The notes under the pieces: generated by a model
What the model was told of the DNA's origin: nothing
Seen by the model: the letters and a program-made list of their open reading frames with translations, nothing else
Database searches by the model: none
DNA from: Gemmatimonadales bacterium
GTDB lineage: Bacteria > Gemmatimonadota > Gemmatimonadetes > Gemmatimonadales > GWC2-71-9
Reading direction: 5' to 3'
Assembly (NCBI GenBank): GCA_036004745.1
Contig: DASYRD010000121.1
Coordinates: 1-35,915, forward strand
Length of the DNA stretch: 35,915 nucleotides
Shown here: piece after piece, positions 9,472 through 32,238 of the stretch
Position numbering within the stretch: the first letter of the stretch is position 1
Layout of the letters: the number at the start of each line of letters is the position of its first letter
Position numbers and translations under genes: made by a program

Positions 9472-9556
9472 GAAATCGAGTTGCGGGACTCGAGAATCGC
9501 GGTCACTATCATCTCCAACTTGGACGCCTGACTCCAGATGTCGATCCCGGGCACCG

Positions 9557-10231
9557 TCACCGTTGCCGAGGCGGCCAGGGGATGCGATACGCGACCTGCA
9601 GCCCGAGCCAGTCGAACTCCTCCAGCCGGGCCGACGCGCCGCCGGCGAAGTCGTAGCGCTCAAAGTGGTAATTCAGCGCGAGCGTCCAGAGCGCCAGAGT
9701 GGCGCTCACGCCGGCGTCGGCGCCGAGGCCGTGCTGCGCGGAGGCTTCCACGCGGGCGCTGACGAACGGCAGATATGACGCGCTCAGGTACACGCGCACC
9801 GTCGAATCCACGAGGGGCCCTGAAAAGCGAACGCCGGTTCCCAGCATGGTCCAGCGTTGGTACAGGGAGGCCGAGCGGAAGGCCCGCACGGAATACGTTG
9901 CCTGGAAGCCGAGCCAACTCCGCGGCTCGAATCGCACGGCTGCGTCGACTTGGCCCGCGACCCGCTCAAACGAGGTATTGACGATCGGCGACAGCGTTCC
10001 CCGGAAACCGGTGATCGACCCGGTGAAGCGTCCCGCCTTGACCGCCACGGTGCCTCCGAACCACCCCCCGCCGATCGCCTCGAGCGTATCCGCGAAGAAC
10101 ACGCGGCTCCGCGCGCTTCCGGCGATCGCGTGCACCGACACCTCGATGCGCCGGCTCTCCTGGGCGCGCACGACAACCGGAGACAAAAACCCGGCGCCGA
10201 GCGCCGCCACGTACAGCGCCGCCCGGCTCAC
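9557..10231 (-). CDS. Small outer-membrane beta-barrel protein (OMP_b-brl-like), last gene of the giant-protein operon
   Basis: GTG start at 10231 overlaps the upstream stop (GTGA). The signal peptide is VSRAALYVAALGAGFLSPVVVRAQE. The mature part (~200 aa) shows alternating hydrophobic beta-strand patterning with aromatic girdle residues (ATYSVRAF, VRVYLSASYLPF, LALNYHFERYDF, LQVAYRIPW). Confidence 0.6.
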   Translation of the reverse strand: MSRAALYVAALGAGFLSPVVVRAQESRRIEVSVHAIAGSARSRVFFADTLEAIGGGWFGGTVAVKAGRFTGSITGFRGTLSPIVNTSFERVAGQVDAAVRFEPRSWLGFQATYSVRAFRSASLYQRWTMLGTGVRFSGPLVDSTVRVYLSASYLPFVSARVEASAQHGLGADAGVSATLALWTLALNYHFERYDFAGGASARLEEFDWLGLQVAYRIPWPPRQR

Positions 10232-11268
10232 GGCTCGGGCACCACGTGAACCCGCAGCATGGGCGTCGTGCGCCGTGCCGCATTGGTCGCGATAATCGAG
10301 CCGTTCCGCTCCTCCCATGCCGAGCGGAGGGCACGATTGTACTCGATATTCTCTGGGAGCAGCTGCTTCGGCCGCCCGAGGAAGTGGGCCGCAATACCCG
10401 CGATACTGACCGTCGCTCCGACGAACAACGCCCGGGTTGTCGTACTCCCGGTTCGCAATTGGTGGTGACCCAGCAGCAGCGGAATCGCCACCGCGCCGAC
10501 ACCAACGCCGACCCCGCGCAACAACGGGCCGCGGGAGCGGGGCCCCCAGCGAAACTCGAGACGAAACAGGGAATCAGCCGGTGGCGGCTCGTGGGCCAGG
10601 CTGTCTGTCGTGGCCTGCGCGACCTCGAAGGACAAACCGCTGGCGGCTGTTCCCGCTGGTGCCGAGTAGTCGACGAGCAGGCGATACGTGCCAGGCGCGA
10701 GCCCGTCGCTGTCGGCGACCGCGAACGACGCGATCGCATTCGACTCGACGGCGAGCACCACAGGGCGCGTCTCCGGCCCCCCCCCCGACCCCGTCGCAGG
10801 CGCCAGGCGGACCCGCACCTGCCCGGGCTGCGACACCGCCACGGCGACCTGCCACCGCCCTGTGCGGGCATCGACGAGCGTGTCCAACGACGGCCGCACG
10901 CCGACCGCGATCACCGTGCGCCTGGCCGCGTCAAACGCCGTAAGCAGTTCTGGATTGTAGTCGTCGGGGTCCAGCCGGAGGAACGGGTCCGCGCGCACGA
11001 CCGCCTGGAAATGGACTGCCGCCGAGTCCAGGAGACCCAGTGACCAGCTCGTCATCGCCAGCCGTAAGTGTGCCTCGCGCCGGAGCGGCGGCGCCGCCCC
11101 CGCGGGAAGCCCGTTCAGGAGTTGACGCAGGAGCTCGACCGTGCGCTCCGGCTCGCCTGCGTCCGACATGGCGACCGCGCGCGCGAGCAACTCCTCGGGT
11201 CTGATTTGCGCCTCCAGGGGCCCGAGGCCGAAGAGGAACGAGACGGCCAACAGCAGGGCGACTCTCAT
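10228..11268 (-). CDS. Secreted, membrane-anchored protein: signal peptide, TPR-like helical region, Ig-like beta region, two transmembrane helices and a cytoplasmic tail
   Basis: ATG at 11268 (MRVALLLAVSFLFGLGPLEAQ) overlaps the upstream stop by 1 nt (TGATG). The C-terminus carries GVGVGVGAVAIPLLLG and ALFVGATVSIAGIAAHFLG hydrophobic segments. The long upstream extension in the ORF track is Arg/Pro-rich junk and was rejected. Confidence 0.65.
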   Translation of the reverse strand: MRVALLLAVSFLFGLGPLEAQIRPEELLARAVAMSDAGEPERTVELLRQLLNGLPAGAAPPLRREAHLRLAMTSWSLGLLDSAAVHFQAVVRADPFLRLDPDDYNPELLTAFDAARRTVIAVGVRPSLDTLVDARTGRWQVAVAVSQPGQVRVRLAPATGSGGGPETRPVVLAVESNAIASFAVADSDGLAPGTYRLLVDYSAPAGTAASGLSFEVAQATTDSLAHEPPPADSLFRLEFRWGPRSRGPLLRGVGVGVGAVAIPLLLGHHQLRTGSTTTRALFVGATVSIAGIAAHFLGRPKQLLPENIEYNRALRSAWEERNGSIIATNAARRTTPMLRVHVVPEP

Positions 11269-12125
11269 CACGGTGGTACTACGGCTTTGAGACGAATCGT
11301 GCCCAGGCGGAGCCGTTGGTCTCGCTCCACCGCGACGACGGTGTCGAACGGCGCGTAGCCGGGCCGTTCGACGCGCAGCTGATGGGTCCCGACCGCCAGC
11401 GGGTACGCGGCCACCGGGGTGTAACCCACGAACTGGCGGTCGAGGTAGACACTGCCCCACGGCGCGGTCGCGAGGTAGAGAAACCCACCTGCCGCTGGTC
11501 CCCGCAGCCGGACCCGCACCACCGTCGTGACGCCGGGCAGGACTTCGCGCTGGAGCCAGACGCGTGCGTAGTCCGGTGCCGACGCCAGCAATCTGTAGCT
11601 CCCGGAGGGCAGGGCGCGTTGCTCTCCCGCATTCAAGACGCCTACCCCTTCGATGAACACGCTGACGGGCGCCCCGGAACGCTCGAGGCGAATCGCTCCA
11701 GCGCTCTGCTGGCTCGGGGGCGTAGCCGGCCAGTCCCACAGGGTCTCCGTGGTCGTGTCGCGCAGGCTGCCGGCGGTGACGCGCTGCGCCAGGGCGAAGG
11801 CGTTCCCGACGGCAGGCGGAAAGTTGAGGGTATCGACCACGATGTCCGGCTTCAGACGCAGCCCCCAGCGGAGCCAGACCGCCGCGAGCGAGTCTTGACG
11901 TCTCTCGAGCAGGATGTAGACGACCCGATGGAGACCCGCCACCCACAGACTGTCGCGCGGCCCAGCTGCGGGATTCATCCCTGCGGCAAGCAGGGGCAGC
12001 GCGGTTTGGTAATCAGCGAAGTCGTAGGCCTGGACTCCCAGCCGCAGCCAGTTGCGCGATTGCTGCGCTCCCGCACGGCCAGCGAGCACGACGGTCAGAA
12101 CGGCGAGGAGCAAGCTCCGCTTCAC
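11268..12125 (-). CDS. Secreted protein with two PEGA domains
   Basis: GTG start at 12125 overlaps the kinase stop (GTGA). The signal peptide is MKRSLLLAVLTVVLAGRAGAQQ. PEGA-like segments are APVSVFIEGVGVLNAGEQRALPSGSYRLLASAPDYARVWLQREVLPGVTTVVRVRL and ATAPWGSVYLDRQFVGYTPVAAYPLAVGTHQLRVERPGYAPFDTVVAVERDQRLRLGTIRL. Confidence 0.7.
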   Translation of the reverse strand: MKRSLLLAVLTVVLAGRAGAQQSRNWLRLGVQAYDFADYQTALPLLAAGMNPAAGPRDSLWVAGLHRVVYILLERRQDSLAAVWLRWGLRLKPDIVVDTLNFPPAVGNAFALAQRVTAGSLRDTTTETLWDWPATPPSQQSAGAIRLERSGAPVSVFIEGVGVLNAGEQRALPSGSYRLLASAPDYARVWLQREVLPGVTTVVRVRLRGPAAGGFLYLATAPWGSVYLDRQFVGYTPVAAYPLAVGTHQLRVERPGYAPFDTVVAVERDQRLRLGTIRLKAVVPP

Positions 12126-13531
12126 GAAGGCTCCCGACGCAGCGTCAGTCGCAGGACGAGAGTGTCGAGGGTTCGCACCGTCACCGTCGTATCAACTGGT
12201 GCGTATCCCTCACGCTCCAGGTGGACTTGATGCTTGCCGGGCCTGACCGACTGCCGATGGGACGTACCTTCGCGGCGAACCACTCCATCGATGGAGATTC
12301 GCGCCCATCCACCCACGGTCTGGATGATGAGGGCACCAGGTCGGACCGCTGTCGGTCCGGAGCCCGTGGGGCGGAGGGCGGTCCGGTTGGTGTCGGGCCT
12401 GGCAACAGACGCGATCGTCTGAGACTCCGTGGTTGCCGGGGGCGGTGCCGTCGCATCCCGCCGCCACAGCTTGGCGGCCGGCACCGCTGCCAGTGCAAGC
12501 GCTGAGATCCCAGCCGCCACGAGCCACCGCCGCCAACGCATGCGGGCAGCGGACGGCATCGCGCGTAGCCGCACCGTGGGCGCGTTGGCCGGTCCCTTCA
12601 GCGCTGCGACGAAGGCGCCAACGCTGGGATACCGATCCAGCGGGTCCTTGGCCATCGCCCGGTCTATGGCGCCGTACACCTCTCGCGGTAGTCCGGGTCG
12701 CAGTCCTTCCAGCGGCGGCGGCGGCGCCACACAGTGCTGGTGGACGATGTCCACCGCGGTCTTTCCATCAAACGGCACGCGACCGGACAGCATGTGGTAG
12801 GCCATGACGCCGGTGGAGTATTGGTCCGCCGCTCCGCTCAAGATCTCCCCACGGCTTTGTTCTGCCGACATGTAGAACGGGGTTCCGATCACGATTCCGG
12901 ACCCCGAGGTGAACCCGTCCACGACCTCCGTCGCGATCCCGAAGTCGGTGACGACGACTCGCCCGCCGGCGTCGACCATGACGTTTGCCGGCTTGACGTC
13001 ACGGTGGACCACGCGCCGCTCGTGAGCATAGTCCAGGGCGTCGGCCGTCTGCTCCAGAATCCGGATGGACTGGTCGAGCGGCAGCCGCGTTCGCTCCAGC
13101 AGAATGTCGGCCAGGGTTCTGCCCTCGATGTACTTCATGGCGTACCAGAACAACCGGCCGCTGCTGACGCGGTAGACGGGAATGATGTGGACGTGCGCGA
13201 GCGCCGCTGCCAGCTTGGCCTCGCGCTTGAAGCGCTCGACCGCACCCCGACCGAAGGTCAGGCTCGGCGGCAGTACCTTGATCGCGACCCGCCGTCCCAA
13301 GGCGATCTCGGTCGCGAGATAGACCACGGCCATACCGCCGCGGCCCAGCTCGCGCTCGATCTCGTACTCCCCAGCCATCTCCCGGCGAAGGAGCAGTTCG
13401 ATCTCGTGCACTGCCGTCTCGTCCAGGAGGTAGGCCGAACCGTAGCCCCCATGGCCCGAGGCCGGGGCCCCACAGTTCACGCAGAATACGCTGTCGGGAG
13501 GAAGCGGCCTGTGACAAGCGTGGCAGTTCAT
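12122..13531 (-). CDS. Hanks-type Ser/Thr protein kinase with N-terminal zinc ribbon, one transmembrane segment and a C-terminal extracytoplasmic PEGA domain
   Basis: CHACHRPLPPDSVFCVNCG zinc ribbon. Kinase motifs: GRGGMAVVY, AIK, HRDVKPANVMV, DFG and SGTPFYMSAEQ. The transmembrane segment is WLVAAGISALALAAVPAAKLW. The C-terminal ARISIDGVVRREGTSHRQSVRPGKHQVHLEREGYAPVDTTVTVRTLDTLVLRL is PEGA-like. The ATG at 13531 overlaps the giant gene stop (ATGA). Confidence 0.9.
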   Translation of the reverse strand: MNCHACHRPLPPDSVFCVNCGAPASGHGGYGSAYLLDETAVHEIELLLRREMAGEYEIERELGRGGMAVVYLATEIALGRRVAIKVLPPSLTFGRGAVERFKREAKLAAALAHVHIIPVYRVSSGRLFWYAMKYIEGRTLADILLERTRLPLDQSIRILEQTADALDYAHERRVVHRDVKPANVMVDAGGRVVVTDFGIATEVVDGFTSGSGIVIGTPFYMSAEQSRGEILSGAADQYSTGVMAYHMLSGRVPFDGKTAVDIVHQHCVAPPPPLEGLRPGLPREVYGAIDRAMAKDPLDRYPSVGAFVAALKGPANAPTVRLRAMPSAARMRWRRWLVAAGISALALAAVPAAKLWRRDATAPPPATTESQTIASVARPDTNRTALRPTGSGPTAVRPGALIIQTVGGWARISIDGVVRREGTSHRQSVRPGKHQVHLEREGYAPVDTTVTVRTLDTLVLRLTLRREPS

Positions 13532-16500
13532 TGAATACTGAACGCGGCGCTGATCGCCGATACGAGGCCCGTGGCCGTCGCGGTCAAGGAGTAGCCAGTC
13601 CCCACCTTCGTGATGTTCAGGTCTGAGAACGTGGCGGTTCCGTTCACCGCGGCCACCGTAGTCGTCCCCCGCAGACTCGCGCCCTGCGTTCCCGTGCCGT
13701 TCGTGATCGCCAGCGTCATCGAGCCGACCCAGTTCGTGACGGCATTGCCGAAGTCGTCGAACGCCGTGACCTGCACCGCCGGGGTGATCGTCGCACCGAC
13801 GGGCGCGGTGGTCGGCTGGACGGTGAAGACCAGCCTCGTGGCCACCGTGATGTCAAAGACCGTGCTCGTCGCGGCCGTCAGCCCGGAGCTGGTGGCGGTC
13901 AGCGTGTAGGCACTGCCCTGCCGATCGATGTTCAAGTCCCCAAACGTGGCCACGCCGTTCACGGCGGTCACGGTCAGGGTTCCGCTCAGGATGGCACCAG
14001 CCGCGCCGGTCCCGCTCGTGATCGCGACCGTGACCGGGCCAGCGAAACCCGTGGCGGTGTTTCCGAACGCGTCCCGGGCCGTGACCTGGAGGGCGGGAGT
14101 CATGTTCATGCCTTTCGGCGTGGTCCTGGGCTGGACCGAGAACACGAGGCTGGTGGTCGAGCCCGGCGTGATATTGAAGCTTGCGCTCGTGGCACCGGCC
14201 AGTCCAGTTGCGGCAGCGGTCAACGTATAGCCCGTCCCCGCCTTGTTCAGACTCAAGCCCGCAAACGTCGCGATTCCGCCGACGGCGCTCTGGGTCAGCG
14301 TCCCACCGAGCGTGGCACCGCCGGGATTCGTCCCGATCGCCACGGTGATCTGGGCCGTCGACGACGTGACGGTGTTGCCGAGCGCGTCCTGTACCGTGAC
14401 CTGCACCGCCGGCGTCACACTTGCTCCGGCGCTGGTCGTGACGGGCTGCACAGTAAACGCGAGGTTCGCGGCCAAGCCAGGCGTGATGTTGAACGCCGTG
14501 CTTGTCGCGGACGTCAAGCCGGTCGCGGATGCTGCCAGGGCGTAGCCGGTCGCCGCCTTGTCGATGTTGAGATTCGCGAACGTCGCCACACCGTTCACGG
14601 CCGCGACCGTCTTGGGGCCGCCCAGCTGCGCTCCGACCGCACCCGTTCCGCTGGCAATCGCCACGGTGACCGAGCCCGTAAAGCTCGGAACGGCGTTCCC
14701 AAGCGCGTCGGCAGCGGTGACCTGCACCGCTGGTGCGATGACGCTCCCAGCCGCCGCGGTTGTCGGCTGACCGCTGAACACCAGCCGGGCGGCCGCGCCG
14801 GGCGTGATGTTGAACGCCGTGCTTACTGCGGACGTGAAGCCGGCGCTCGAGGCCGTCAGCGTATAGTTGTTGCCCGTTTTGTTGATGCTGAGATTGCTGA
14901 ACGTGGCCACGCCGAGCACCGCATTCACAGTCTTGGTCCCCGAGAGCACGGCGCCCGGCGAGCCCGTGCCCGCCGTGATCGCCACCGTGATCTGGCCGGT
15001 GAAGGTGGTGTCGGACGCGGTTACCCGAATGGCTGGCGTGATCACACTCCCCGCAGTCGCCGTCGTGGGCTGCACGGTAAACGCGAGGGTCGACGGCGTG
15101 ATGTTGAAGCCGCTGCTCGTCGCCGCCACCAGGCCGGCCGCGGTGCTGGTCAGCGTGTAACCGCTGCCCGGCAGGTTGATGTTCAACGTGCTGAACGTGG
15201 CGACACCCTTCACGGCGCTCACCGTCCTGGTCCCTGACAGGACGGCGCCGCTCGTGCCCGTCCCGCCCGTGATCACCACCGTGACGCTGCCCGTGAACGT
15301 GGTATCAGTATTCCCGAATGGGTCTTGCGCCGTCACCTTCACCGCCGGCGTGATCGCCCTGCCCGCCACCGTGTTGCTCGGCTGGACGCTGAAGGCGAGG
15401 CGGCTGGCGGGTGCGGGGACGATCCCGAAGGCCGCGCTGGTGGCCCCGGCCAGCCCGCTCGACGTGGTGCTCAAGGTGTAGCCGCTGCCCGCCTTGTCGA
15501 TACTCAAGTCGGAGAACAGCGCCACCCCGGCGAGCGCCGGACGGGTGGTGGTTCCAGAGAGCACCGCTCCGGGGGCACCCGTCCCGACGGTGATCGCGAC
15601 CGTGACGTTCCCGGTAAAGCTCGTGGCCGTGTTGCCGAAAGCGTCCCGAGCCAGAACCTGCAGCGCGGGGGCAAGGTTGCTACCTGCCTGCGTGACCGTC
15701 GGCTGGGCCGCCACGGCGAGGTTCGTCGCGGTGCTGGGAGTGACGTCGAACGCCGCGCTCGTGCCCCCCGCCAGCCCGCTCGCCGTGGCGACCAGCGTGT
15801 AGCCGCTGCTCGCGAGCGCGATAGCCAAGTCGGAGAAGGACGCGACACCGTTCGCCGCACTTCGGCTCACGGTTCCGGAGAGCGTCGCCCCGCTCGGGTT
15901 CGTCCCGATCGCCAGCGTGATGAGGGTCGTGGCGCTCGTCACCGTGTTGCCGAGGGAGTCCCGCACCGTTACCTGCACGTCGGGGGTTATCAGGCTCCCC
16001 GCACTGGCCGTCGCCGGCTGCACGGTGAAGACGAGACGCGAGGGCGTGCCAGATGAGATAGTGAAGGGAGCGCTGGTGGTGCCGGCGACGCCGCTCGCCG
16101 TCGTGGTCAGCGTATACCCGATCCCGGCCGCGTTGATGCTCAAGTCCCCGAAGGTTGCGACTCCGTTCAGGGCGCTCTGCGTCAGCGTCCCGGAGAGGGT
16201 CCCGCCGGTCGGGTTCGTCCCGATCGCTACGGTGATGAGCGACGTGGCGTTGATCACCGTGTTGCCCAGGGCATCCTGAACGGCCACGCGTACGGCCGGT
16301 GCGATCACGCCGCCGACCGCCGCCACACTCGGCTGGACGGAGAAGCCGAGCTTGGCGGGCGCGCCCGCGACGATATCGAACCCGGAGCTCGTGGCTTCGG
16401 CGAGGCCACTCGCCGTCGCGGTGAGCGCGTAGCCCGTGCCCGCCCTGTCGATGTTCAAGTCCGAGAACAGCGCTACACCGCCGACGGCGACCACCGTGGG

Positions 16501-19500
16501 CGTCCCGGACAGCGTCGCGCCGCTCGTGCCGGCGCCCGTCGTGATGGCGAGGGTGACACTCGGCGCTGCCGACGTGACGACGTTGTCGAACGCGTCCTGC
16601 ACCGTCACCCGCACGGCGGGGGTGAGCGTGGCGCCCGCGGCCGCGCCGCTCGGCTGCACGGTGAAGCCCAACTTGCTCGCGGCCCCGGGAATGATGTTGA
16701 AGGTGGTGCTCGTGGCGCCCGTGAGGCCGCTCCCCGTGGCCGCGACCGTGTAACCGGTCGCAGCCCGGTCGATGCTCAGGTCCGCGAAGCTCGCCACGCC
16801 GCGTACCGCCGTCTGGCTCAGCGTCCCCGAAAGCGTGCCCCCACCCGGGTTGCTCCCGATGACCATCGCAACGCTGCCCGCGAAGGTCGTGTCGACGTTG
16901 CCCAGGCTGTCCAACACGCTGACCTGGATCGCGGGCGCGATGATACTGCCCGCCGCGGTCGTGCTCGGCTGGCTGGTGACGGCGAGCCTACTCGGCATTC
17001 CGGCGGTTACGGCAAACCCCGCGCTCGTCGCCCCGGCCAAGCCGTTCGTCGTGGCCACGAGCGTGTAGCCCGTCCCGGCCTTGTTGAGGCTCAGGTCCGA
17101 GAAGGTCACCACGCCGTTCACCGCGTTCCGCGTCAGCGTACCGGCGAGGGTGCTGCCGCCTGGATTCGCGCCGAGGGCGAGGATGACGAGGCTCGACGCG
17201 CTCGTGACCGTGTTGCCGTAAGCGTCCTCGACGGCGACCTGCACGAGCGGTGTGATCACACTTCCCGCGACCGTCGCGCTGGGCTGAACAGTGAACGCGA
17301 CCTGCGTGGCGGAGCCCGGCGCGACGTTGAAGTCGATGCTCGTCGCCGTGGCGAGGCCGCCGGCCGTGGCGGCGAGTGTGTAGCCGGTCCCGGCCTTGTC
17401 GAGGCTCAAGTCCGCGAACGTCGCCACGCCGTTCACTGCCGTCCGGGTCAGCGTCCCCGCGAGGGTCCCACCGCCGGCGTTGTTCGCGATCGACAGCGTG
17501 ATGTCGTTCGAGGCGCTCGGGACCGGGTTCCCCTGCGCATCCAGAATGGTGACCTGAACCGCGGGGGTCATGACGGCGCCTGCCGCAATCGTGGTCGGCT
17601 GGACGCTAAAGGCGAGACGGCTCGGGGGAGCGGGGACAATCGCGAACGCCACACTCGTGGCTCCCGTCAGACCGCTTGCCGTGGCGCTCAGCGTGTAGCC
17701 CGTGCCGGCCTTGTCGACGCTCAGGTCGGAGAACAGCGCCACGCCGGCCACCGCCGCCACCGTTGTCGTGCCGCTGAGAATCGCCCCACTCGTCCCGGAG
17801 CCCGGGGTCAGCGCCAGGGTGACGCTCGCGGGTCCACTCACCGTGTTGCCCAACCCGTCCTGCACCGTCACCCGCACGGCCGGGGTCAATGACGCCCCGG
17901 AAGCGGTCGTACTGGGCGGCTCCAGGGTGAAGGCAAGCCGTACCGCCGGGCCCGAGGAAACGGCAAAGCTCGCGCTCACGGTGGAGGTGAGGGCAGGCGC
18001 CACGGCCGTGAGCGTGTAGCCCACGCCTATTTTGTCGAGACTGAGATCGGCAAAGCTCGCCACCCCGCTCGCCGCCGTCACGGTGCGCGTCCCGCTGAGG
18101 GTGGCGTCGGGGCTCCCCGTACCGCTGGTAATCGCCACCGTCACCGCCCCGTTGAACCCGGTGACGGTGTTCCCCAAGCTGTCCTGGGCCGCCACCTGCA
18201 GCGTCGGCCCCATGATGCTCCCCGCCGTGGCCGCGCTCGGCTGCACGACGAACACGAGCCGGCTCGGCGCCCCCAACGTCACACCAAACGTCGTGCTCGT
18301 CGCGCTCGCGACGCCGGCCGCCGTAGCCGTCAACGTGTAGCCCGTCCCCGACCGGTCGAGGCTCAGGTCGGTGAAGGTCGCGACTCCCGCCACCGCGTTC
18401 TGGCTCAGCGTTCCCGTCAGGTTCGACCCGCCCGGGTTCGTCCCGATCGCCACCGTCACCAGCGTCGTGGCGCTCGTCACCGTGTTTCCGAACGCATCCT
18501 GCAGCGCGACGCGCACCGCAGGACTGACGGGGAATCCCGCCTGGGTCGCGCTGGGCTCCCCGGTGAAGGCCAACCTCGCGGGTGGCGCGGGGGCCACTGC
18601 GAACGCCGCGCTCGTCGCGCTCCCCAGCCCCGTCGCGGTGGCGGTGAAGGTGTAACCGGACCCCGCCTTATCGACGCTCAACGTAGTGAAACTCGCCGTG
18701 CCGCCCGCCGCGGTCAGCGTCGTAGTCCCCGCGAGCGTCGCGCCGCTGGTCCCCGTCCCCACGGTGAGCCCCACCGTCACGTTCCCCGTGAACGTGGTGC
18801 TCGTGTTCCCGAGGGCGTCCACCGCCACCACCCCAACTGCCGGGCTCAGCACGCTTCCGGCTTCCACGAGCCCCGGCTGCCCGGAGAACGCCAGCTGCAC
18901 CGCGGCGCCGGCGCCGACGTCGAAGCTGCCGCTCATCGCGCTCGCGACCCCGCTCGCCGTCGCCGTGAGGGTGTACGCCGTCCCGGTCTTGTCCACCGTC
19001 AAATTCGAAAACGTCGCGATTCCTGCCACGGCCGCCACGGTGGTCGTGCCACCCAGCGTACCGCTCGGGTTGCCGGTCCCGGGCGTGATCGCGATCGTCA
19101 CACTCGGATTGGCCGATGCGACCGTGTTGCCCAGCGCATCCTGGATGGCGACCTGAACCGCGGGACTGATCGCTGCACCCGCAATCGTGGCGCCCGGCTG
19201 GACGGCAACGATGAGCTTCGCTGGGGGCCCGGCAGTGATGTTGAACGTGGTGCTCGTGATCACGGGAAGACCGGAGGTCGACGCGGTCAGCACGTAGTCC
19301 GCGCCCGACTTGTTGATGCCGAGATCGGAGAACGTCGCGACCCCAGCCACCGTCGGCTTGGTCGCGGTGCCCGACAGGGTGGCGCCCGGGCTCCCGCTCC
19401 CGGCTCCGATCGCGACCGACACGCTCCCGGCATAGCTGGTGACCGTGTTGCCCAAGACGTCTTGAACGGTCACGTCTACGCTCGGCGCCATGACGCCGCC

Positions 19501-22053
19501 CGCCACGGTGCCGGTCGGTTGCACCGTGAACGCAAGCTTCGCCGCGGGTCCCGGCGTGATGTCGAACCCCGTGCTCGTTGCAGTCGTCAGGGTCCCGGCG
19601 ACGGCGACGAACGTGTACCCACTGCCGGCCCGGTTGATGGCCAGGTCCGAGAAGGTGGCGACACCGTTCACCGCACTCCGGCTCGCCGTCCCGGCGAGGG
19701 TCCCGCCCCCCGGGTTGGCGCCGATCACCACGGTGACCAGGGTCGTCGCGGTCGTGACCGTGTTGCCGAACTCGTCTTGGATGGCGACCTGGAGGGTCGG
19801 CTGGATCGCCGCGCCTGCGATCGTGGTGCCGGGCTGTACGATGAACGCGAGCTTTGTGGCGCCGGCTGTGATGTCGAAGCTGCCGCTCGTCGCGCCCGGT
19901 AAGCCGCCCGAGGCAGCACTCAGCGTGTAGCCGGTGCCCATATTATTGATGGTCAAATCTCCGAAGGTCGCCACCCCGTTCACGACGCTCCGGCTCAGCG
20001 TCCCCGCGAGCGTCCCGCCGCTCGGGTTCGTCCCGATCGCCAGCGTGACGATCCCGGTGGCGCTCGGCACCGTATTCCCGAACGCATCCTGGATCGCCAC
20101 CTGCACGGCCGGCGTCAGTGCCGTCCCGGACACGGCCGTCGTCGGCTGCACGGTGAAGGCGAGCGTCGCGGGGACACCCGCCGCGACATTGAACCCCGCG
20201 CTGGTGCCCGTGGTCAAACCGCTGGCCGTCGCGGCCAACGTGTAACCCGTCCCGGCCTTGTTGAGGCTGAGATCCGAGAAGCTCGCGATGCCGCTCGCCG
20301 CGGTCTGCGTGAGCGTTCCGGTCAGCGTGGCGCCGCCGGGATTCGTGCCGATGGCCAGCGTGATACTCCCGCCGGCGCTCGCTACCGTGTTTCCGAACCC
20401 GTCCTGGATCGCGACCTGGACGGCCGGCGCGAGCGCGCTTCCGGCGACGGCGTTGGCCGGCGGCACGGAGAATCCGAGCTTCGTCGGGGCGCCCGCCGTG
20501 ACGTCGAATCCGCTGCTCGCTCCCGATCCCAGGCCGGGCGCCGTCGCAACCAGGGTGTAGCCGCTCCCGGCCTTGTGGACGCTCAGGTTCGCGAAGCTCG
20601 CGACGGCATTCACCGGGGCCCCGACGAGTGTTCCCTGGAGAGTGCCCCCGCCTGGATTCGTCCCGAGGGCGAGGGTGATCGGGGCGGTGGCGCTCGGCAC
20701 CGTATTGCCCAACGCGTCCTGGATCGCCACCTGCACCGCGGGACCGATCGTGTCGCCTGCGACGATCGTCGTCGGCTGAACGACGAAGGCGACCTTCGCC
20801 GCGGCTCCCGGATCGATGTCGAAACCGCCGCTCGTGGCGGCGGCGAGGCCGCTCGCGGTGGCGACAAGTGTGTAGGCGGTGCCCGCGCTCGCGATGCTCA
20901 GATCCGAGAACGTCGCGACCCCGGTGACAGCGCTCCGGCTCACGGTGCCTGCGAGGGTCCCGCCTCCGGGGTTCGTCCCGATCGACAGCGTGATCAGCGT
21001 CGTGGCATTCGCGACGGGCATGCCCAGCGAGTCCTGCACGGCGACCCGCAGCGGCGGCGAGATGACTCCGCCCGCGACCGTGCGGTTCGGCTGCACCGCG
21101 AATGCGAGCTGCTTGGGCACCTGCTGCACCGTCACGCCCGTGGTGTCGGAGACCGAGTCCACGGTCGCCGTGACGCCAGCCGTGCCGTTCGCGACTGCGG
21201 CTGCCAATCCGGGAGTAGGCCCGATCGACACGGCGCCGGGGTTGGTCGAGCTCCACGCGACGGCTGGTTGCGCAATCAGGCTGTCGCTCTTGTCCCACGC
21301 TTGCACGACGAGCTGTTGTGTTGCGGTGAGCGCGTTGAACTGTACCGCGCTCGGGCTCACCTGGACGCGCGCCGCGCGCTGGCGGACCGTCACGACGAAA
21401 TAGGCGTGCGCCGTGTCGACGCTGGCGCGGATGGTGTCGGTCCCATTCGCGACGGCGACGATCCTTCCGGAGGCGGGGTCAACGCGTACGGCACGCCCGG
21501 TGATGCCGCCGGCAGCGAGCTCATAGCGCGGTGTGATCGTCGCTGAGTCGCTGGGGCTCACGGGCGTGCTGTCGGCCGCCAAGTACCCGGGCCGGAAGTA
21601 GAGACTGTCTCCCAGCGCGGCCAATGTTGCACGGCCGCGCGTCGTATCGCTCAGGAGTGGCCGCATCGCGCTCACGATGACCCGCGCCACGAAGCTCGTC
21701 TCGGGTGGCGAAGCTCCGCTCGCCCCGGTCAGGAGCACCACGCGAATGGAGTCAGCGCCGCGCTTGCGGCCGAAGATGCGATTGGGCTCTACGATCGTGG
21801 CCAACGACGAGTCGCGGCTTTCGAGGCGGAGCCGAGCGTTGGGGAGCGCTTTCCCATCGACCAGCACGCTGATCGGGGCCACGACGGTGCCGCCGGTGGC
21901 GACGAGCACCGTATCCGAGGGGATGACGAATCGGATGCGAGGGGTCGGGGGCTCGGATGGGAGGATGCACGTGGTCAGCAGCGTCGCCAGCCCCGTGACG
22001 GCGAAGCCACGGCGCAGCAAACCGCGAGATTGGGGCGCCTTGCGATCGATCAC
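13528..22053 (-). CDS. Giant (2841 aa) secreted, possibly lipidated, surface protein: N-terminal Big_2-like domains followed by about 24 tandem invasin/intimin-type Big_1 Ig-like domains (adhesin / S-layer-like)
   Basis: GTG start at 22053. The signal MIDRKAPQSRGLLRRGFAVTGLATLLTTC is Tat-like with a Cys lipobox. The repeating ~105-aa unit is ...FTVQPttavAGsvitPAVQVavQDalGNTVtSattlvTLAIGTNPGGgTLaGTltrsAVNGVATFsDLSlDKAGtGYTLvATAsGLagATSaaFdit.G... The protein is very rich in A/T/G/S/V with almost no Cys, and is open across 8.5 kb. Confidence 0.9.
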   Translation of the reverse strand: MIDRKAPQSRGLLRRGFAVTGLATLLTTCILPSEPPTPRIRFVIPSDTVLVATGGTVVAPISVLVDGKALPNARLRLESRDSSLATIVEPNRIFGRKRGADSIRVVLLTGASGASPPETSFVARVIVSAMRPLLSDTTRGRATLAALGDSLYFRPGYLAADSTPVSPSDSATITPRYELAAGGITGRAVRVDPASGRIVAVANGTDTIRASVDTAHAYFVVTVRQRAARVQVSPSAVQFNALTATQQLVVQAWDKSDSLIAQPAVAWSSTNPGAVSIGPTPGLAAAVANGTAGVTATVDSVSDTTGVTVQQVPKQLAFAVQPNRTVAGGVISPPLRVAVQDSLGMPVANATTLITLSIGTNPGGGTLAGTVSRSAVTGVATFSDLSIASAGTAYTLVATASGLAAATSGGFDIDPGAAAKVAFVVQPTTIVAGDTIGPAVQVAIQDALGNTVPSATAPITLALGTNPGGGTLQGTLVGAPVNAVASFANLSVHKAGSGYTLVATAPGLGSGASSGFDVTAGAPTKLGFSVPPANAVAGSALAPAVQVAIQDGFGNTVASAGGSITLAIGTNPGGATLTGTLTQTAASGIASFSDLSLNKAGTGYTLAATASGLTTGTSAGFNVAAGVPATLAFTVQPTTAVSGTALTPAVQVAIQDAFGNTVPSATGIVTLAIGTNPSGGTLAGTLSRSVVNGVATFGDLTINNMGTGYTLSAASGGLPGATSGSFDITAGATKLAFIVQPGTTIAGAAIQPTLQVAIQDEFGNTVTTATTLVTVVIGANPGGGTLAGTASRSAVNGVATFSDLAINRAGSGYTFVAVAGTLTTATSTGFDITPGPAAKLAFTVQPTGTVAGGVMAPSVDVTVQDVLGNTVTSYAGSVSVAIGAGSGSPGATLSGTATKPTVAGVATFSDLGINKSGADYVLTASTSGLPVITSTTFNITAGPPAKLIVAVQPGATIAGAAISPAVQVAIQDALGNTVASANPSVTIAITPGTGNPSGTLGGTTTVAAVAGIATFSNLTVDKTGTAYTLTATASGVASAMSGSFDVGAGAAVQLAFSGQPGLVEAGSVLSPAVGVVAVDALGNTSTTFTGNVTVGLTVGTGTSGATLAGTTTLTAAGGTASFTTLSVDKAGSGYTFTATATGLGSATSAAFAVAPAPPARLAFTGEPSATQAGFPVSPAVRVALQDAFGNTVTSATTLVTVAIGTNPGGSNLTGTLSQNAVAGVATFTDLSLDRSGTGYTLTATAAGVASATSTTFGVTLGAPSRLVFVVQPSAATAGSIMGPTLQVAAQDSLGNTVTGFNGAVTVAITSGTGSPDATLSGTRTVTAASGVASFADLSLDKIGVGYTLTAVAPALTSTVSASFAVSSGPAVRLAFTLEPPSTTASGASLTPAVRVTVQDGLGNTVSGPASVTLALTPGSGTSGAILSGTTTVAAVAGVALFSDLSVDKAGTGYTLSATASGLTGATSVAFAIVPAPPSRLAFSVQPTTIAAGAVMTPAVQVTILDAQGNPVPSASNDITLSIANNAGGGTLAGTLTRTAVNGVATFADLSLDKAGTGYTLAATAGGLATATSIDFNVAPGSATQVAFTVQPSATVAGSVITPLVQVAVEDAYGNTVTSASSLVILALGANPGGSTLAGTLTRNAVNGVVTFSDLSLNKAGTGYTLVATTNGLAGATSAGFAVTAGMPSRLAVTSQPSTTAAGSIIAPAIQVSVLDSLGNVDTTFAGSVAMVIGSNPGGGTLSGTLSQTAVRGVASFADLSIDRAATGYTVAATGSGLTGATSTTFNIIPGAASKLGFTVQPSGAAAGATLTPAVRVTVQDAFDNVVTSAAPSVTLAITTGAGTSGATLSGTPTVVAVGGVALFSDLNIDRAGTGYALTATASGLAEATSSGFDIVAGAPAKLGFSVQPSVAAVGGVIAPAVRVAVQDALGNTVINATSLITVAIGTNPTGGTLSGTLTQSALNGVATFGDLSINAAGIGYTLTTTASGVAGTTSAPFTISSGTPSRLVFTVQPATASAGSLITPDVQVTVRDSLGNTVTSATTLITLAIGTNPSGATLSGTVSRSAANGVASFSDLAIALASSGYTLVATASGLAGGTSAAFDVTPSTATNLAVAAQPTVTQAGSNLAPALQVLARDAFGNTATSFTGNVTVAITVGTGAPGAVLSGTTTRPALAGVALFSDLSIDKAGSGYTLSTTSSGLAGATSAAFGIVPAPASRLAFSVQPSNTVAGRAITPAVKVTAQDPFGNTDTTFTGSVTVVITGGTGTSGAVLSGTRTVSAVKGVATFSTLNINLPGSGYTLTSTAAGLVAATSSGFNITPSTLAFTVQPTTATAGSVITPAIRVTASDTTFTGQITVAITAGTGSPGAVLSGTKTVNAVLGVATFSNLSINKTGNNYTLTASSAGFTSAVSTAFNITPGAAARLVFSGQPTTAAAGSVIAPAVQVTAADALGNAVPSFTGSVTVAIASGTGAVGAQLGGPKTVAAVNGVATFANLNIDKAATGYALAASATGLTSATSTAFNITPGLAANLAFTVQPVTTSAGASVTPAVQVTVQDALGNTVTSSTAQITVAIGTNPGGATLGGTLTQSAVGGIATFAGLSLNKAGTGYTLTAAATGLAGATSASFNITPGSTTSLVFSVQPRTTPKGMNMTPALQVTARDAFGNTATGFAGPVTVAITSGTGAAGAILSGTLTVTAVNGVATFGDLNIDRQGSAYTLTATSSGLTAATSTVFDITVATRLVFTVQPTTAPVGATITPAVQVTAFDDFGNAVTNWVGSMTLAITNGTGTQGASLRGTTTVAAVNGTATFSDLNITKVGTGYSLTATATGLVSAISAAFSIQ
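13560..20950. repeat. Intragenic tandem repeat array, unit about 315 bp (309-318), about 23-24 copies, encoding the Big_1 Ig-like domains
   Basis: The periodicity is visible directly: antisense pseudo-ORFs recur at 13610, 13928, 14243, 14558, 14867, 15176, 15494... with similar translations, and the sense protein repeats correspondingly. The units are similar at the DNA level, not only the protein level. Confidence 0.85.
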
Positions 22054-22243
22054 AAAAACCAGGGTGTGAAGAGCGCAAAATCACACGCTCGGTCACGGGC
22101 CTTAACCCCGGGGGGCGCTACCGGAGTGCGGTCACCAATCTGACGTCAACGCGACCACGCAAACAAGGAACGGGTCCGCCTGGAATCTGTGACGGAGATC
22201 ACGCCTGGCCCGAAGGCTGTTTTGGGTGATAGGATGTCACCCT

Positions 22244-23638
22244 ATGATTACCGCACTCCTCCTCGCCCTGCAGCTCGGCACACCGCCCGTCTACGAGCGC
22301 GTGATCCTCGGCGGCCGCCTGATCGACCCGGCCTCCAACCTCGATGCCGTCCGGAACATCGGCATCTCGAGCGGGCGCATCGCCGTCATTACGACGCGTG
22401 CCGTAGAAGGTCGCGACACGGTCGACGCGCGGGGCCTGGTCGTCACACCCGGGTTCATCGACCTCCACGCCCACGGGCAGGCCCCCGAGACCTATCGGTT
22501 CTACGCGCTCGACGGCGTGACGACAGCGCTCGAGCTCGAGCTCGGCACCTCCGACGTCGCTGCCTGGTACCGCGAACGCGAGGCCGGTGAGCGCATCAAC
22601 TACGGCGTCTCGATCGGCCACATCAAAGTCCGGATGGCGGTGATGCATGATCCCGGCACCCGCATGCCGGTGGCCGACGGCGCCTATCGCCCGGCGACGC
22701 CCGAACAGATCGCTGAGATCGCGCAACGCATCGAGAACGGGTTGAACGAAGGCGCGGTCAGCATCGGCGCCGGGTTTCCGTACACGCCCGCGGCCACACA
22801 CGAGGAGCTGCTCGCGGTGTTCCGCGTCGCCGCCAAGACCAAGACACCGATCCACGTGCACATTATCCCCGGACTCGCCGGGCTCAGAGCCGCCCTCGCG
22901 CTCGCCGGCGAAACCGGCGCCCCATTGCACGTGGTGCACATCAACAGCAGCGGTCAAGCTGAGACGCGCGCGTTGCTCGATGCCGTCAGAGAGGCGCGGG
23001 CGCACGGACTTGCCGTCAGCACGGAGGCATATCCCTATGACGCCGGCATGACGGAGATTCAATCCTCCGTGATCCAAGACGTTTACAAGAATGCTCCCGA
23101 TGAGCGCCTGGCCGAGCTCGAATGGCCGCGGACGGGCGAACGGCTCAATCGCGAGAGCTTCGATCGTTACACCAAGACCGGCGGTCCCCTCGTGATTCAT
23201 ACGAACACAGAGGAGATGGTGGCCGTGGCGATTACGAGCCCGCTCACGATCATTGCGAGCGATGCGTACTGGCAGGACGGCACGGGTCATCCGCGGACGA
23301 CGGGCACGTTCGCCCGAGTCCTCGGCCGCTACGTGCGCGAAACGCACGGACTGAGTCTGATGGACGCGATCCGCAAGATGACCCTCTGGCCCGCGCAGCG
23401 ACTCGAGGCGCGAGTCCCCTCCATGAAACAGAAAGGGCGACTCCTTGTCGGCGCTGACGCAGACATTACGATCTTCGATGCCGCCACGGTGCTCGATCGC
23501 TCGACGTATCGCGAGCCTTCGCTCCCACCTGTGGGCATTCAACACGTGATCGTGAACGGCGTGTCGGTCGTCAAGAACGGGCAAGCAGTTGAAGGGGTCT
23601 CACCAGGAAAGGCGGTACGAGCGGGGGCACCACAATGA
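22244..23638 (+). CDS. Amidohydrolase of the N-acyl-D-amino-acid deacylase (D-aminoacylase) family; candidate N-acetyl-amino-sugar-acid deacetylase
   Basis: Motifs GLVVTPGFIDLHAHGQ (metal-binding HxH), IHVHI, LHVVHIN and VIASDA are characteristic of D-aminoacylase-type amidohydrolases. Start is ATG at 22244 (or GTG at 22226). It overlaps the next gene (ATGA). Confidence 0.8.
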   Translation: MITALLLALQLGTPPVYERVILGGRLIDPASNLDAVRNIGISSGRIAVITTRAVEGRDTVDARGLVVTPGFIDLHAHGQAPETYRFYALDGVTTALELELGTSDVAAWYREREAGERINYGVSIGHIKVRMAVMHDPGTRMPVADGAYRPATPEQIAEIAQRIENGLNEGAVSIGAGFPYTPAATHEELLAVFRVAAKTKTPIHVHIIPGLAGLRAALALAGETGAPLHVVHINSSGQAETRALLDAVREARAHGLAVSTEAYPYDAGMTEIQSSVIQDVYKNAPDERLAELEWPRTGERLNRESFDRYTKTGGPLVIHTNTEEMVAVAITSPLTIIASDAYWQDGTGHPRTTGTFARVLGRYVRETHGLSLMDAIRKMTLWPAQRLEARVPSMKQKGRLLVGADADITIFDAATVLDRSTYREPSLPPVGIQHVIVNGVSVVKNGQAVEGVSPGKAVRAGAPQ

Positions 23639-32226: not shown

Positions 32227-32238
32227 GTTCACAGGAAG

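Follow-up and report, generated by a model that had tools for sequence, protein, structure and literature searches.

A conserved five-gene operon of Gemmatimonadota encoding a PEGA-domain Hanks-type kinase and predicted envelope proteins, among them a giant Ig-repeat lipoprotein

Our analysis revealed one conserved operon of five minus-strand genes (here named g1 to g5, Table 1) on contig DASYRD010000121.1 of an uncultured soil Gemmatimonadales bacterium (GCA_036004745.1). The whole stretch of DNA that was analysed, 35,915 nt in length, is referred to below as the window. The products are predicted to reside in the cytoplasm, the inner membrane, the periplasm and the outer membrane, as indicated by a lipobox on g1, a single transmembrane segment followed by a PEGA domain on g2, signal peptides read off the translated g3, g4 and g5, and a structure model of g5 as a beta-barrel. 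The explanation that we tentatively favour, with a confidence somewhat short of even, is that the operon encodes an envelope-spanning complex around the Hanks-type kinase through which the state of the cell surface is signalled outside-in; the complex and the direction of the signal are what we infer from the gene structure, the domain content, the synteny with relatives, the fusion of g3 to g4, the co-occurrence of g4 with g5 and the modularity of the g1-type proteins.

Table 1. Positions of the operon genes, their domains and junctions in the window. Residue numbers refer to the respective protein.
Feature	Coordinates	Strand	Basis
g1, giant lipoprotein, 2841 aa, GTG start	13528..22053	-	GC3 0.88; translation
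g1 signal peptide, residues 1-29, ending in lipobox L-T-T-C (Cys29)	21967..22053	-	conserved motif
g1 base module, residues 30-319, Big_2-type Ig domains	21097..21966	-	homology to cargo proteins with other outer parts
g1 array of 24 contiguous Ig-like repeats of ~105 aa, residues 320-2841	13531..21096	-	HMM self-search, alignment
g2, Hanks-type Ser/Thr kinase, 469 aa	12122..13531	-	Pkinase 4.3e-39
g2 N-terminal zinc ribbon (CxxC...CxxC), residues 3-23	13463..13525	-	Zn_Ribbon_1 1.9e-4, below cut-off
g2 catalytic domain, residues 56-310	12602..13366	-	Pfam PF00069, PF07714
g2 sole transmembrane segment, residues 337-355	12467..12523	-	Kyte-Doolittle 1.88; RMRWRRW just before
g2 extracytoplasmic PEGA, residues 401-467, behind Pro/Thr-rich linker	12131..12331	-	PF08308
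g3, secreted protein, 285 aa	11268..12125	-	PEGA 1.2e-12
g4, membrane-anchored g3 paralog, 346 aa, ATG at 11268	10228..11268	-	homology to g3
g5, outer-membrane beta-barrel, 224 aa, GTG at 10231	9557..10231	-	structure model
g1/g2 overlap ATGA (g1 stop, g2 start)	13528..13531	-	sequence read; kept in L013, L014
g2/g3 overlap GTGA (g2 stop, g3 start)	12122..12125	-	sequence read
g3/g4 overlap TGATG (g3 stop, g4 start)	11266..11270	-	sequence read
g4/g5 overlap GTGA (g4 stop, g5 start)	10228..10231	-	sequence read
Intergenic region, 172 bp, between g1 and divergent amidohydrolase gene	22054..22225	.	presumed operon promoter region

All five genes in the region 9557-22053 are coding, with GC3 values of 0.80-0.88, and these values together with the junction sequences bear out the five genes and four overlaps given in a preliminary description of this DNA. 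That description also proposed production in fixed stoichiometry, which start/stop overlaps do not imply. Longer open reading frames for g4 (10228-11946) and g5 (9557-10318) were rejected as false N-terminal extensions (GC3 0.53-0.55). The sigma-70 consensus had no match within the intergenic region upstream of g1, and no promoter-like site was found on the minus strand anywhere in 9300-22400, so that the operon promoter is placed in this region by presumption. An internal sigma-70 promoter splitting the operon is unsupported, since the sole promoter-like match sits on the wrong strand, and the same applies to a splitting terminator, as terminator-like matches were no commoner than in shuffled sequence.

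Both the gene order and the overlaps are shared by dozens of Gemmatimonadota loci from metagenomes and MAGs. Specifically, the order giant gene, kinase, g3, g4, g5 is kept at every locus long enough to display all of them, and the overlaps are conserved among relatives that are 40-85% identical in g4. The kinase-g3 and g4-g5 junctions are 4-nt overlaps nearly wherever they could be read in related loci, the giant-kinase junction is -4 nt in close relatives, and the g3-g4 junction is mostly -4, -1 or +1 to +5 nt. L006, L021, L031, L013 and L014 have a homolog of g1 upstream of their kinase; in L006 the giant gene stops at 7587-7589 and the kinase starts at 7603. An apparent extra gene of 304 aa between the two in L006 proved to be the C-terminal fragment of the giant gene, which is split there. 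The synteny of kinase, g3 and g5 in relatives was a check named in the preliminary description, and the recurrence of order and overlaps supports its view of the five genes as one conserved, tightly coupled unit. Downstream flanks vary among relatives (RNase G with L21/L27, DUF4386, or an ECF sigma factor), and conservation of the neighbouring ankyrin and amidohydrolase genes was rejected on these grounds; the amidohydrolase of the window had no tblastn match in the related loci. FHA, PP2C and T6SS domains were absent from the 15 flanking genes, and the window contained no FHA protein, PP2C phosphatase or obvious kinase substrate.

A search with full HMMER yielded 222 strong relatives of g4, and a pattern-based scan of species-representative genomes with a g4 profile returned none, which we attribute to a limit of that method. 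With a g3 profile, 29 loci were found in species-representative genomes, all of them Gemmatimonadota MAGs. In all but one of them (28/29) the gene immediately ahead of the g3-like gene is a kinase gene, and the PEGA part of the kinase was matched in all kinase-bearing loci except L047 (27/28); at L066 all kinase matches were below threshold. All three such cassettes that were checked encode a neighbouring Ig or RCC1 protein with a lipobox. Wherever a cassette of the g4/g5 type could be inspected, the gene immediately before that of the kinase codes for a large Ig or propeller protein; in six of these cassettes its lipobox was confirmed. The five-gene module represents one of several subtypes of a cassette that joins a kinase and its TPR partner to a lipoprotein throughout the Gemmatimonadota; in other subtypes the partner is fused to trypsin or to RCC1.

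The product of g2 matched Pkinase (PF00069) with 134.9 bits against a gathering cut-off of 31.7, and its catalytic motifs are intact (GRGG63, VAIK82, HRD176, DFG196, SAEQ222). Within NCBIfam the catalytic domain is nearest to the PknB/Stk1 model (3.9e-82), yet it falls under the cut-off of that model. A single PEGA ectodomain, as first proposed from inspection of the sequence, is borne out by a PF08308 match above cut-off (32.8 bits vs 20.8). The zinc ribbon at the N-terminus, absent from the preliminary description, exceeded its cut-off in two related kinases, those of L048 and L063.

The g3 protein consists of a signal peptide (residues 1-20), a helical TPR-like domain (~21-125), a transthyretin-clan beta-sandwich (~136-212) and a PEGA domain (220-274); its signal peptide lacks a Cys and g3 is thus not a lipoprotein. 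It had been taken for a secreted protein with two PEGA domains, of which the secretion signal and one PEGA domain stand: PEGA exceeded its cut-off in one stretch only (residues 220-274, 48 bits), and the first beta domain remained below it. Across 20 homologs, this first domain matched CarboxypepD_reg in 17 (best 5.8e-5) and PEGA in six (best 1.8e-3), all below cut-off, and when the two beta domains of g3 were aligned by hhalign, the local E was 1.3e-3 across 26 columns. We take PEGA and CarboxypepD_reg to be related within one Pfam clan.

Following a signal peptide, g4 shows a TPR part (residues 24-116), a beta-sandwich (122-219), two hydrophobic helices (248-265 and 276-297) and a conserved C-terminal helix and strand (305-343) with the motif PENIxYNRALRxxW. 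The helical-hairpin repeat fold of TPR proteins was found in g4 and, by homology, in g3. The TPR part and first beta domain of g3 are homologous to g4 (hhalign 97.9%, E 5.7e-13), and g3 and g4 are on this evidence paralogs. The earlier view of g4 as a bitopic protein did not hold, as there are two hydrophobic segments and not one. These helices were modelled with pLDDT of ~50-66 and carry Arg-rich stretches on both flanks; g4 is tentatively predicted to be anchored in the inner membrane by the two helices as a C-terminal hydrophobic hairpin. The loop between the helices (268-279) is Ser/Thr-rich in all homologs. At seven loci (L001, L003, L022-L025, L030) the two genes have merged into a single reading frame that no longer encodes the g4 signal peptide, and about eight cluster representatives of the g4 family among those listed have ~600 aa and match g4 only by their C-terminal half, as expected of a fusion. 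Paralogy and in-frame fusion suggest that g3 and g4 may associate physically. Neither the paralogy nor the fusion had been described before for this DNA.

The kinase and its TPR proteins might alternatively act as an envelope or cell-wall sensor that monitors peptidoglycan or the spacing of the layers, modelled on PASTA kinases and on the TPR proteins Lpo or CpoB in wall synthesis, with the lipoprotein merely co-expressed. The proximity of the kinase domain to the PknB/Stk1 type and the phylum-wide pairs of kinase and TPR partner with varied neighbours would agree with such a sensor. However, the TPR matches are generic, since in the PDB comparison the TPR part of g4 alone was matched and dozens of unrelated TPR proteins scored equally; Pfam identified no PASTA, LysM, SPOR or OmpA-like peptidoglycan-binding domain in the five proteins, and the constant presence of a large Ig or propeller protein with a conserved base upstream of the kinase in the g4/g5-type cassettes is difficult to reconcile with mere co-expression. 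We consider a wall sensor improbable.

The g5 protein carries a signal peptide (residues 1-24) followed by ten antiparallel strands (29-218), which in the AF2 prediction, with one of five models confident, form a closed barrel resembling solved outer-membrane proteins. The model is in line with the small outer-membrane beta-barrel that had been proposed for this gene. Profiles of g4 and g5 gave nothing significant against PDB sequences, and neither protein belongs to an NCBIfam family. A g5 gene is present in 23 of 23 loci that contain g4 and have room for g5, compared with none of the 27 g3-like cassettes without g4; g4 and g5 are an obligate pair. This pairing was not part of the preliminary description. 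Four-base gene overlaps are common in compact bacterial genomes, and the five genes could on that account be accidental neighbours that act independently, their overlaps being a product of the compact GC-rich genome. Such a neighbourhood, however, would not explain why order and overlaps are kept down to 40% identity while the flanks change, why several lineages have g3 fused to g4, or why g4 and g5 co-occur so strictly; given these comparative data we regard it as very unlikely, to the point of being hardly credible.

By sequence, g1 is a predicted lipoprotein with a conserved base of about 290 aa and an exchangeable outer part. Its signal peptide ends in LLTTC29, and six cargo homologs (as we call g1 and its counterparts) retain both this Cys and the residues around it, consistent with a predicted lipidation; the motif L[TA][TS]C[IFL]LP[ST][ED/T] is shared by the window, L006, L021, L031, L036 and L044, with the proteins only 35-51% identical. 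The Thr at position -1 of the lipobox is unusual. The base is 51% identical to that of L006 and 35% identical (E 2e-31) to the N-terminus of a Big_2 and RCC1 protein in L036. No Pfam or NCBIfam match was obtained for the base in the window sequence; in the L036 and L045 proteins Pfam detected three to four Big_2 domains inside or adjoining the homologous region. The cargo outer part is swapped among relatives, comprising 24, ~17 or 3 Big_1-like repeats, or an RCC1 or PD40 propeller, and the base is constant. This cargo modularity and the phylum-wide cassette are additions to the preliminary description.

That description had counted about 24 Ig domains in the 2841-aa protein, and a search with an HMM built from one unit found exactly 24, each 97-107 aa long, in an array that reaches the C-terminus. 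The repeats are mutually 42-64% identical at the protein level and no DNA-level tandem repeat was found by TRF, so they are old; an assembly artefact or a recent amplification is thereby ruled out. The assignment of these repeats to the invasin type (Big_1) is supported by way of a homolog, with scores below the Pfam threshold in the window itself: Big_1 (PF02369) reached 22.2 bits against a cut-off of 34.9 and Invasin_D3 (PF09134) 21.4 bits against 33, whereas the homologous array of L048 (tblastn 3e-75) matched Big_1 with 154 bits (1e-45) and Invasin_D3 with 163 bits (3e-48). Single repeats of g1 showed weak matches to Big_1, Invasin_D3, GH2_C5 and CarboxypepD_reg in 3-6 of 24 cases (Big_1 in 3/24, Invasin_D3 in 6/24), and an Ig-repeat profile found nothing significant among PDB sequences.

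The giant protein and the PEGA proteins might instead build a surface layer whose assembly is watched by the kinase. PEGA is described in Pfam as similar to S-layer proteins, the operon encodes three PEGA-clan domains, and the domain is reported to have been described first from surface proteins of archaea and bacteria (PMC2447325). The link to S-layers that had been drawn for this DNA derives solely from the Pfam description, and swapped cargo heads are ill-suited to a lattice. Moreover, the PEGA domains of g3 and the kinase are predicted to lie in the periplasm of a diderm cell and not on its surface. The 24 tandem Ig domains of the lipid-anchored cargo make up a fibre, in place of which relatives have three Ig domains or a beta-propeller; this is not a lattice-forming architecture, and Pfam found no SLH or S-layer family match in the five proteins. 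A surface layer is therefore highly improbable.

In the envelope-spanning complex that we favour, g3 and g4 would bridge the pair at the outer membrane, namely the g1 base and g5, to the ectodomain of the kinase, plausibly by PEGA-PEGA contact. The activity of the kinase would respond to a ligand bound by g1, to mechanical load on it or to its state of assembly, and Ser/Thr phosphorylation in the cytoplasm would change accordingly. A report on the state of a surface protein to the cytoplasm by phosphorylation plausibly fits this anatomy, for which we infer the contacts between the parts, an exposed position of g1 at the surface, the way in which the signal runs and the substrate. Surface exposure in particular is assumed, and g1 could equally face the periplasm. 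Since a kinase, its TPR partner and a lipoprotein are also encoded together in cassettes that lack g4 and g5, the barrel is dispensable for the basic relation of kinase and partner, and g5 may serve anchoring or export and not signalling. A narrower version, which we hold to be possible at best, is a hitherto undescribed trans-envelope receptor of diderm bacteria with swappable lipoprotein heads (Ig fibres or beta-propellers) on a common Big_2 base, a dedicated 10-stranded barrel that helps to hold them at the outer membrane, and coupling through g3 and g4 to the kinase PEGA. It would be a counterpart of FecA-FecR-type surface signalling that works by Ser/Thr phosphorylation, head-swapped within Gemmatimonadota.

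The same parts could work in the opposite direction, as a display or anchoring machine in which g3 to g5 export, thread or tether the lipoprotein at the outer membrane and the kinase, instead of sensing the surface protein, controls this apparatus from its cytoplasmic side; the Ser/Thr-rich loop that links the two g4 helices could, for instance, be a phosphorylation target. The presence of that loop in all homologs would suit such a role, as would the restriction of the g4/g5 pair to the one cassette subtype whose cargo has the C-[IFL]-L-P-[ST]-[ED] context, and a carrier could recognise its cargo by the constant base beneath the variable outer part. The 10-stranded barrel of OpcA/OmpT type, however, has a narrow and mostly filled lumen, compared with 14 strands in the Slam barrel and 12 in autotransporter barrels; no energy source or chaperone is encoded, and PEGA domains on both the kinase ectodomain and g3 suggest a periplasmic input to the kinase. 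We regard a display machine as a rather unlikely alternative.

The Gemmatimonadota, a phylum abundant in soil, have hardly been studied by experiment, and for very few systems is it understood how signals from outside the outer membrane reach a Hanks kinase of a diderm bacterium. The module offers a defined set of conserved parts (kinase, two TPR partners, barrel and lipoprotein) predicted to extend from the outer membrane to the cytoplasm, in which natural variation such as g3-g4 fusions, g4/g5 pairing and swapped heads hints at the parts that cooperate. If the signalling complex is true, it would represent a modular wiring of surface receptors or adhesins to Ser/Thr phosphorylation and place the PEGA ectodomain, widespread among bacterial kinases, in a functional context for the first time. 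If it is a display device instead, it would be a new route, based on a small barrel and TPR proteins, for handling giant lipoproteins.

No characterised system of matching composition was found in searches of Pfam, NCBIfam, PDB sequences and the literature, the last covering PEGA with kinase and Gemmatimonadetes with kinase or lipoprotein, in agreement with what had been supposed at the outset. Several known systems share some of the features. Inverse autotransporters (type Ve, e.g. intimin and invasin) also combine an N-terminal membrane anchor, a long C-terminal array of Ig domains (there of the Big_1/invasin type) and an outer-membrane barrel. Intimin and invasin, however, carry their 12-stranded barrel and the Ig array on one polypeptide, whereas g1 has no such barrel N-terminal to its Ig array and its Big_1 matches are below the Pfam threshold. 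Slam (DUF560) of Neisseria has a periplasmic TPR part and an outer-membrane barrel and is dedicated to lipoproteins encoded next door. Unlike in Slam, which is a single 14-stranded protein, TPR and barrel are separate here, the barrel has 10 strands and a kinase belongs to the unit; DUF560 had no Pfam match in the five proteins. With the ten-stranded OpcA and OmpT, g5 shares only 11-12% identity and, in contrast to them, is always encoded with g4; its loops are short, and there is thus no sign of the OpcA adhesin surface or the OmpT protease site. PASTA kinases (PknB, PrkC, Stk1) resemble g2 in having a Hanks kinase, one transmembrane segment and an extracytoplasmic beta-rich sensor domain, but g2 has one PEGA domain instead of PASTA repeats, a diderm host and obligate co-encoded periplasmic partners.

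In the H1-T6SS of P. aeruginosa, the outer-membrane protein TagQ and the periplasmic TagR act upstream of the kinase PpkA (PMC7817224). As in TagQRST-PpkA, which also has inner-membrane components, a membrane-spanning Hanks kinase is co-encoded here with envelope accessory proteins including a predicted outer-membrane lipoprotein and a predicted periplasmic partner, and the envelope or surface state would be relayed to cytoplasmic phosphorylation (PMC7817224). The module could plausibly be a variant of such accessory-protein-coupled Hanks kinase signalling. In contrast to the Tag system, no T6SS, Fha1, PppA or TagS/T-like ABC component is present in the window. The ectodomain of PpkA is a von Willebrand-type domain, whereas that of g2 is PEGA. 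The partners here are paralogs composed of TPR and beta-sandwich plus a beta-barrel, and the likeness to the Tag system lies in the layout of the parts.

The five consecutive minus-strand ORFs g1-g5 (giant lipoprotein, kinase, g3, g4 and barrel) have a coding-type GC3 of 0.80-0.88 throughout 9557-22053, in a window of ~68% GC. The four start/stop overlaps given in the preliminary description were all reproduced by direct reading (see table). Longer N-termini of g4 and g5 in the ORF list were rejected as non-coding, with GC3 of 0.53-0.55 in the extensions. The predicted locations of the five products cover all layers of the envelope.

Word-indexed searches with g5, g4 and g3 returned 10, 14 and 39 clusters, respectively; every named match was a Gemmatimonadales MAG protein. 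With a g4 profile, full HMMER gave 1618 cluster representatives at E<=1e-3 and 222 at E<=1e-30, the latter mostly full-length at ~350 aa, and the g4 family is therefore sizeable. We collected 70 related loci (L handles; metagenome or MAG) for tblastn comparison with the window proteins. The order giant-kinase-g3-g4-g5 was retained in every locus extending far enough (L006/L020, L021, L031, L013, L014, L018, L019, L022-L025, L029), which bears out the proposed gene neighbourhood. Since the flanks downstream of g5 differ among loci, the module boundary lies at g5. Nearly all readable kinase>g3 and g4>g5 junctions of these loci overlap by 4 nt; g3>g4 junctions are mostly at -4, -1 or +1 to +5 nt and elsewhere in-frame fusions. 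The close relatives L013 and L014 have -4 nt at the giant>kinase junction, and in L006 the giant stops at 7587-7589 and the kinase starts at 7603. Judged by this arrangement, g1-g5 are an operon-like conserved unit; accidental adjacency of the five genes is a less likely explanation. The protein g5 was encoded in all 23 non-redundant loci with g4 and downstream room and in none of 27 g3-like cassettes without g4, and by gene content the pairing of g4 and g5 is obligate.

Two of these loci deserve a separate remark. The giant gene of L006 was called as two genes, probably owing to a frameshift or assembly error within the repeats. L010, the most distant full module, carries a g3 paralog without Pfam match upstream of a 707-aa kinase with three PEGA stretches, and an RCC1-repeat protein in place of the Ig giant.

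The kinase g2 (469 aa) is of the Hanks type (Pkinase 4e-39), and with every catalytic motif present it is predicted to be catalytically intact. An N-terminal zinc ribbon, one transmembrane segment (337-355) and a Pro/Thr-rich linker are followed by one PEGA domain above the Pfam threshold (32.8 versus 20.8 bits), which is, as had been suggested, the only extracytoplasmic domain. Its partner g3 (285 aa) likewise ends in a clear PEGA (48 bits), preceded by a signal peptide without Cys, an N-terminal helical domain and a beta domain. The earlier label of 2xPEGA had to be abandoned: the first beta domain is no clean PEGA, showing weak CarboxypepD_reg matches in 17 of 20 homologs, weak PEGA matches in 6 of 20 and only a local hhalign match to the real PEGA of g3. 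Existing annotation of g3 reads only 'PEGA domain-containing protein'.

By profile-profile comparison g3 and g4 are paralogs: 230 columns, spanning the TPR and first beta domain, aligned with 97.9% probability and E 5.7e-13. Divergence is confined to the C-terminal part, with PEGA in g3 and a membrane anchor in g4. In L001/L003, L022-L025 and L030 an in-frame fusion of ~600 aa combines both, and its g4 match begins just past the g4 signal peptide, which is lost; ~8 representatives of ~600 aa from the HMMER search, matching g4 in their C-terminal half only, are fusion-like. Such fusions are classical evidence that g3 and g4 act together, here in the periplasm. The short loop joining the two hydrophobic helices of g4 (inter-helix loop, residues 268-279, HHQLRTGSTTTR) is Ser/Thr-rich in all homologs with no position invariant, and could be a kinase target if it faces the cytoplasm.

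The signal peptide of g1 (2841 aa) ends in L-T-T-C29, and from residue 320 to the C-terminus the protein is filled by exactly 24 contiguous repeats of 97-107 aa, in agreement with the earlier estimate of about 24. The repeats are mutually 42-64% identical in protein sequence, and at this divergence Tandem Repeats Finder does not detect them in the g1 DNA; they are therefore old and not an assembly artefact. Their assignment as invasin-type Ig domains is supported by homology but not by direct Pfam score: g1 stays below the cut-offs (Big_1 22.2 versus 34.9 bits, Invasin_D3 21.4 versus 33), only a few single repeats gave weak Pfam matches, and a PDB sequence search with a g1 repeat gave no match. 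The repeats are, however, clearly homologous (tblastn 3e-75) to the array of L048, which itself matches Invasin_D3 (3e-48) and Big_1 (1e-45), so that the assignment is probably correct by transitivity.

The N-terminal ~310 residues of g1 recur in several other proteins with differing outer parts (see table), and with them the lipobox context L[TA][TS]C[IFL]LP[ST][ED/T]. The module is therefore composed of a constant four-gene core and a lipoprotein with constant base and exchangeable outer part. An exception is L043, where the upstream protein is a Big_3_5/Big_2/fn3 giant.

A g3-profile scan of species-representative genomes identified 29 loci, all in Gemmatimonadota MAGs. Immediately before the g3-like gene, 28 of these loci have a kinase gene, its PEGA being matched as well in 27 of the 28 (not L047); in L066 tblastn gave no kinase match at threshold. 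Most of the 29 loci (25) lack g4 and g5. Where loci of this kind were inspected, the g3-like TPR and beta module was joined in one protein with a trypsin-like protease (Trypsin_2; L048, L063) or with RCC1 and Big_2 (L047). Big_1-like arrays lie downstream in L048, L050, L051, L053, L054 and L060; matches were weaker in L067 and L069. The protein encoded downstream has a lipobox in L048, L050 and L053. The combination of kinase, TPR partner and lipoprotein is thus phylum-wide, and the window operon represents one subtype of this Gemmatimonadota cassette. The protease-fused gene of L048 has a Big_1 lipoprotein giant downstream; a protease beside a giant adhesin may recall LapG/LapA-type control.

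We tentatively favour a trans-envelope complex in which the kinase ectodomain would be connected, through the TPR and beta-sandwich proteins, to an outer-membrane pair made up of lipoprotein base and barrel, and phosphorylation by the kinase would vary with the state of the lipoprotein. Contacts among the parts, surface exposure of g1, signalling direction and kinase substrate are all putative. The main rival, which we hold to be rather improbable, is that g3, g4 and g5 form a lipoprotein display or anchoring device controlled from inside by the kinase. It would accommodate the strict pairing of g4/g5 with the special lipobox context and the barrel-less cassettes that still combine kinase, partner and lipoprotein, but the 10-stranded barrel is narrow, making a translocation pore less likely.

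The closest functional precedent for the module is TagQRST-PpkA of P. aeruginosa, where a Hanks kinase acts downstream of a periplasmic partner and a lipoprotein of the outer membrane (PMC7817224); none of its defining partners T6SS, Fha1 and PppA is encoded in the window. An inverse autotransporter is excluded, as the barrel is a separate protein with 10 strands and a different fold neighbourhood, and so is Slam, as the module lacks DUF560 and has its TPR and its barrel on separate proteins. The module is neither a PASTA-kinase module nor an S-layer system; both a general envelope or cell-wall sensor and the S-layer idea of the preliminary description are less likely than the trans-envelope complex. 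Its parts belong to known families (Hanks kinase, PEGA, TPR, Big_1-like Ig, 10-stranded outer-membrane barrel), and we class it with accessory-protein-coupled transmembrane Ser/Thr kinase signalling; its components and modular logic are uncharacterised. As anticipated, no characterised system of this composition and no PEGA-ectodomain kinase system was found in the literature searched, and Pfam and NCBIfam hold no family for g4, g5 or the g1 base. Comparative sequence support for a real system of unusual architecture is strong, while its function is what we infer; the carrier lineage is uncultured.

Coordinates and composition of features in the window and in related loci
Feature	Locus	Position	Strand	Remark
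g1 giant lipoprotein	window	13528..22053	-	
g2 kinase	window	12122..13531	-	
g3	window	11268..12125	-	
g4	window	10228..11268	-	
g5 barrel	window	9557..10231	-	
g1/g2 junction	window	13528-13531	-	ATGA
g2/g3 junction	window	12122-12125	-	GTGA
g3/g4 junction	window	11266-11270	-	TGATG
g4/g5 junction	window	10228-10231	-	GTGA
g4, rejected longer ORF	window	10228-11946	-	
g5, rejected longer ORF	window	9557-10318	-	
g4 inter-helix loop	window	10378-10527	-	
Ankyrin-repeat gene	window	7912-9471	+	Ank_2 2.6e-30
Antisense ORF chain	window	13595-20245	+	~100-170 aa each, GC3 0.82-0.94
SPFH/Band_7 gene	window	29399-31330	-	643 aa
c-di-AMP (ydaO-type) riboswitch	window	31305-31445	-	RF00379, 82.9 bits, gathering score 38
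Hybrid histidine kinase	window	32227-35754	+	
g3-g4 fusion	L001	292-2151		
g3-g4 fusion	L003	420-2264		
g3-g4 fusion	L022	1563-3803		
g3-g4 fusion	L030			
Giant, first call	L006	1012-6678		1888 aa
Giant, second call	L006	6675-7589		304 aa, last three repeats
g3 paralog	L010	2973-3968		331 aa
g3-like protease fusion	L048	9914-11722		
g3-like protease fusion	L063	9877-11910		
g3-like RCC1 + Big_2 fusion	L047	9890-13525		
Lipoprotein with g1-type base	L036			35% identity to g1 N-terminus, E 2e-31; remainder Big_2 + RCC1 propeller
Lipoprotein with g1-type base	L044			637 aa; ~3 Ig repeats
Lipoprotein with g1-type base	L045			Big_2 + PD40 propeller
Lipoprotein with g1-type base	L006, L021			giants with ~17 repeats

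The neighbours of g1-g5 are unrelated to the module, with a divergent amidohydrolase gene followed by genes for a lactonase, a permease and others on one side and the convergent ankyrin-repeat gene on the other. The latter ends 86 bp from the g5 stop codon, and this adjacency is not conserved among relatives. The plus-strand ORFs antisense to g1 appear to be frame shadows of GC-rich repeat coding sequence and not genes. Elsewhere in the window, the riboswitch is located directly 5' of the SPFH/Band_7 gene. A second envelope-sensing protein of the contig, unrelated to the g1-g5 operon, is the large hybrid histidine kinase, which combines Reg_prop/Y_Y_Y beta-propeller sensor domains with a receiver domain.
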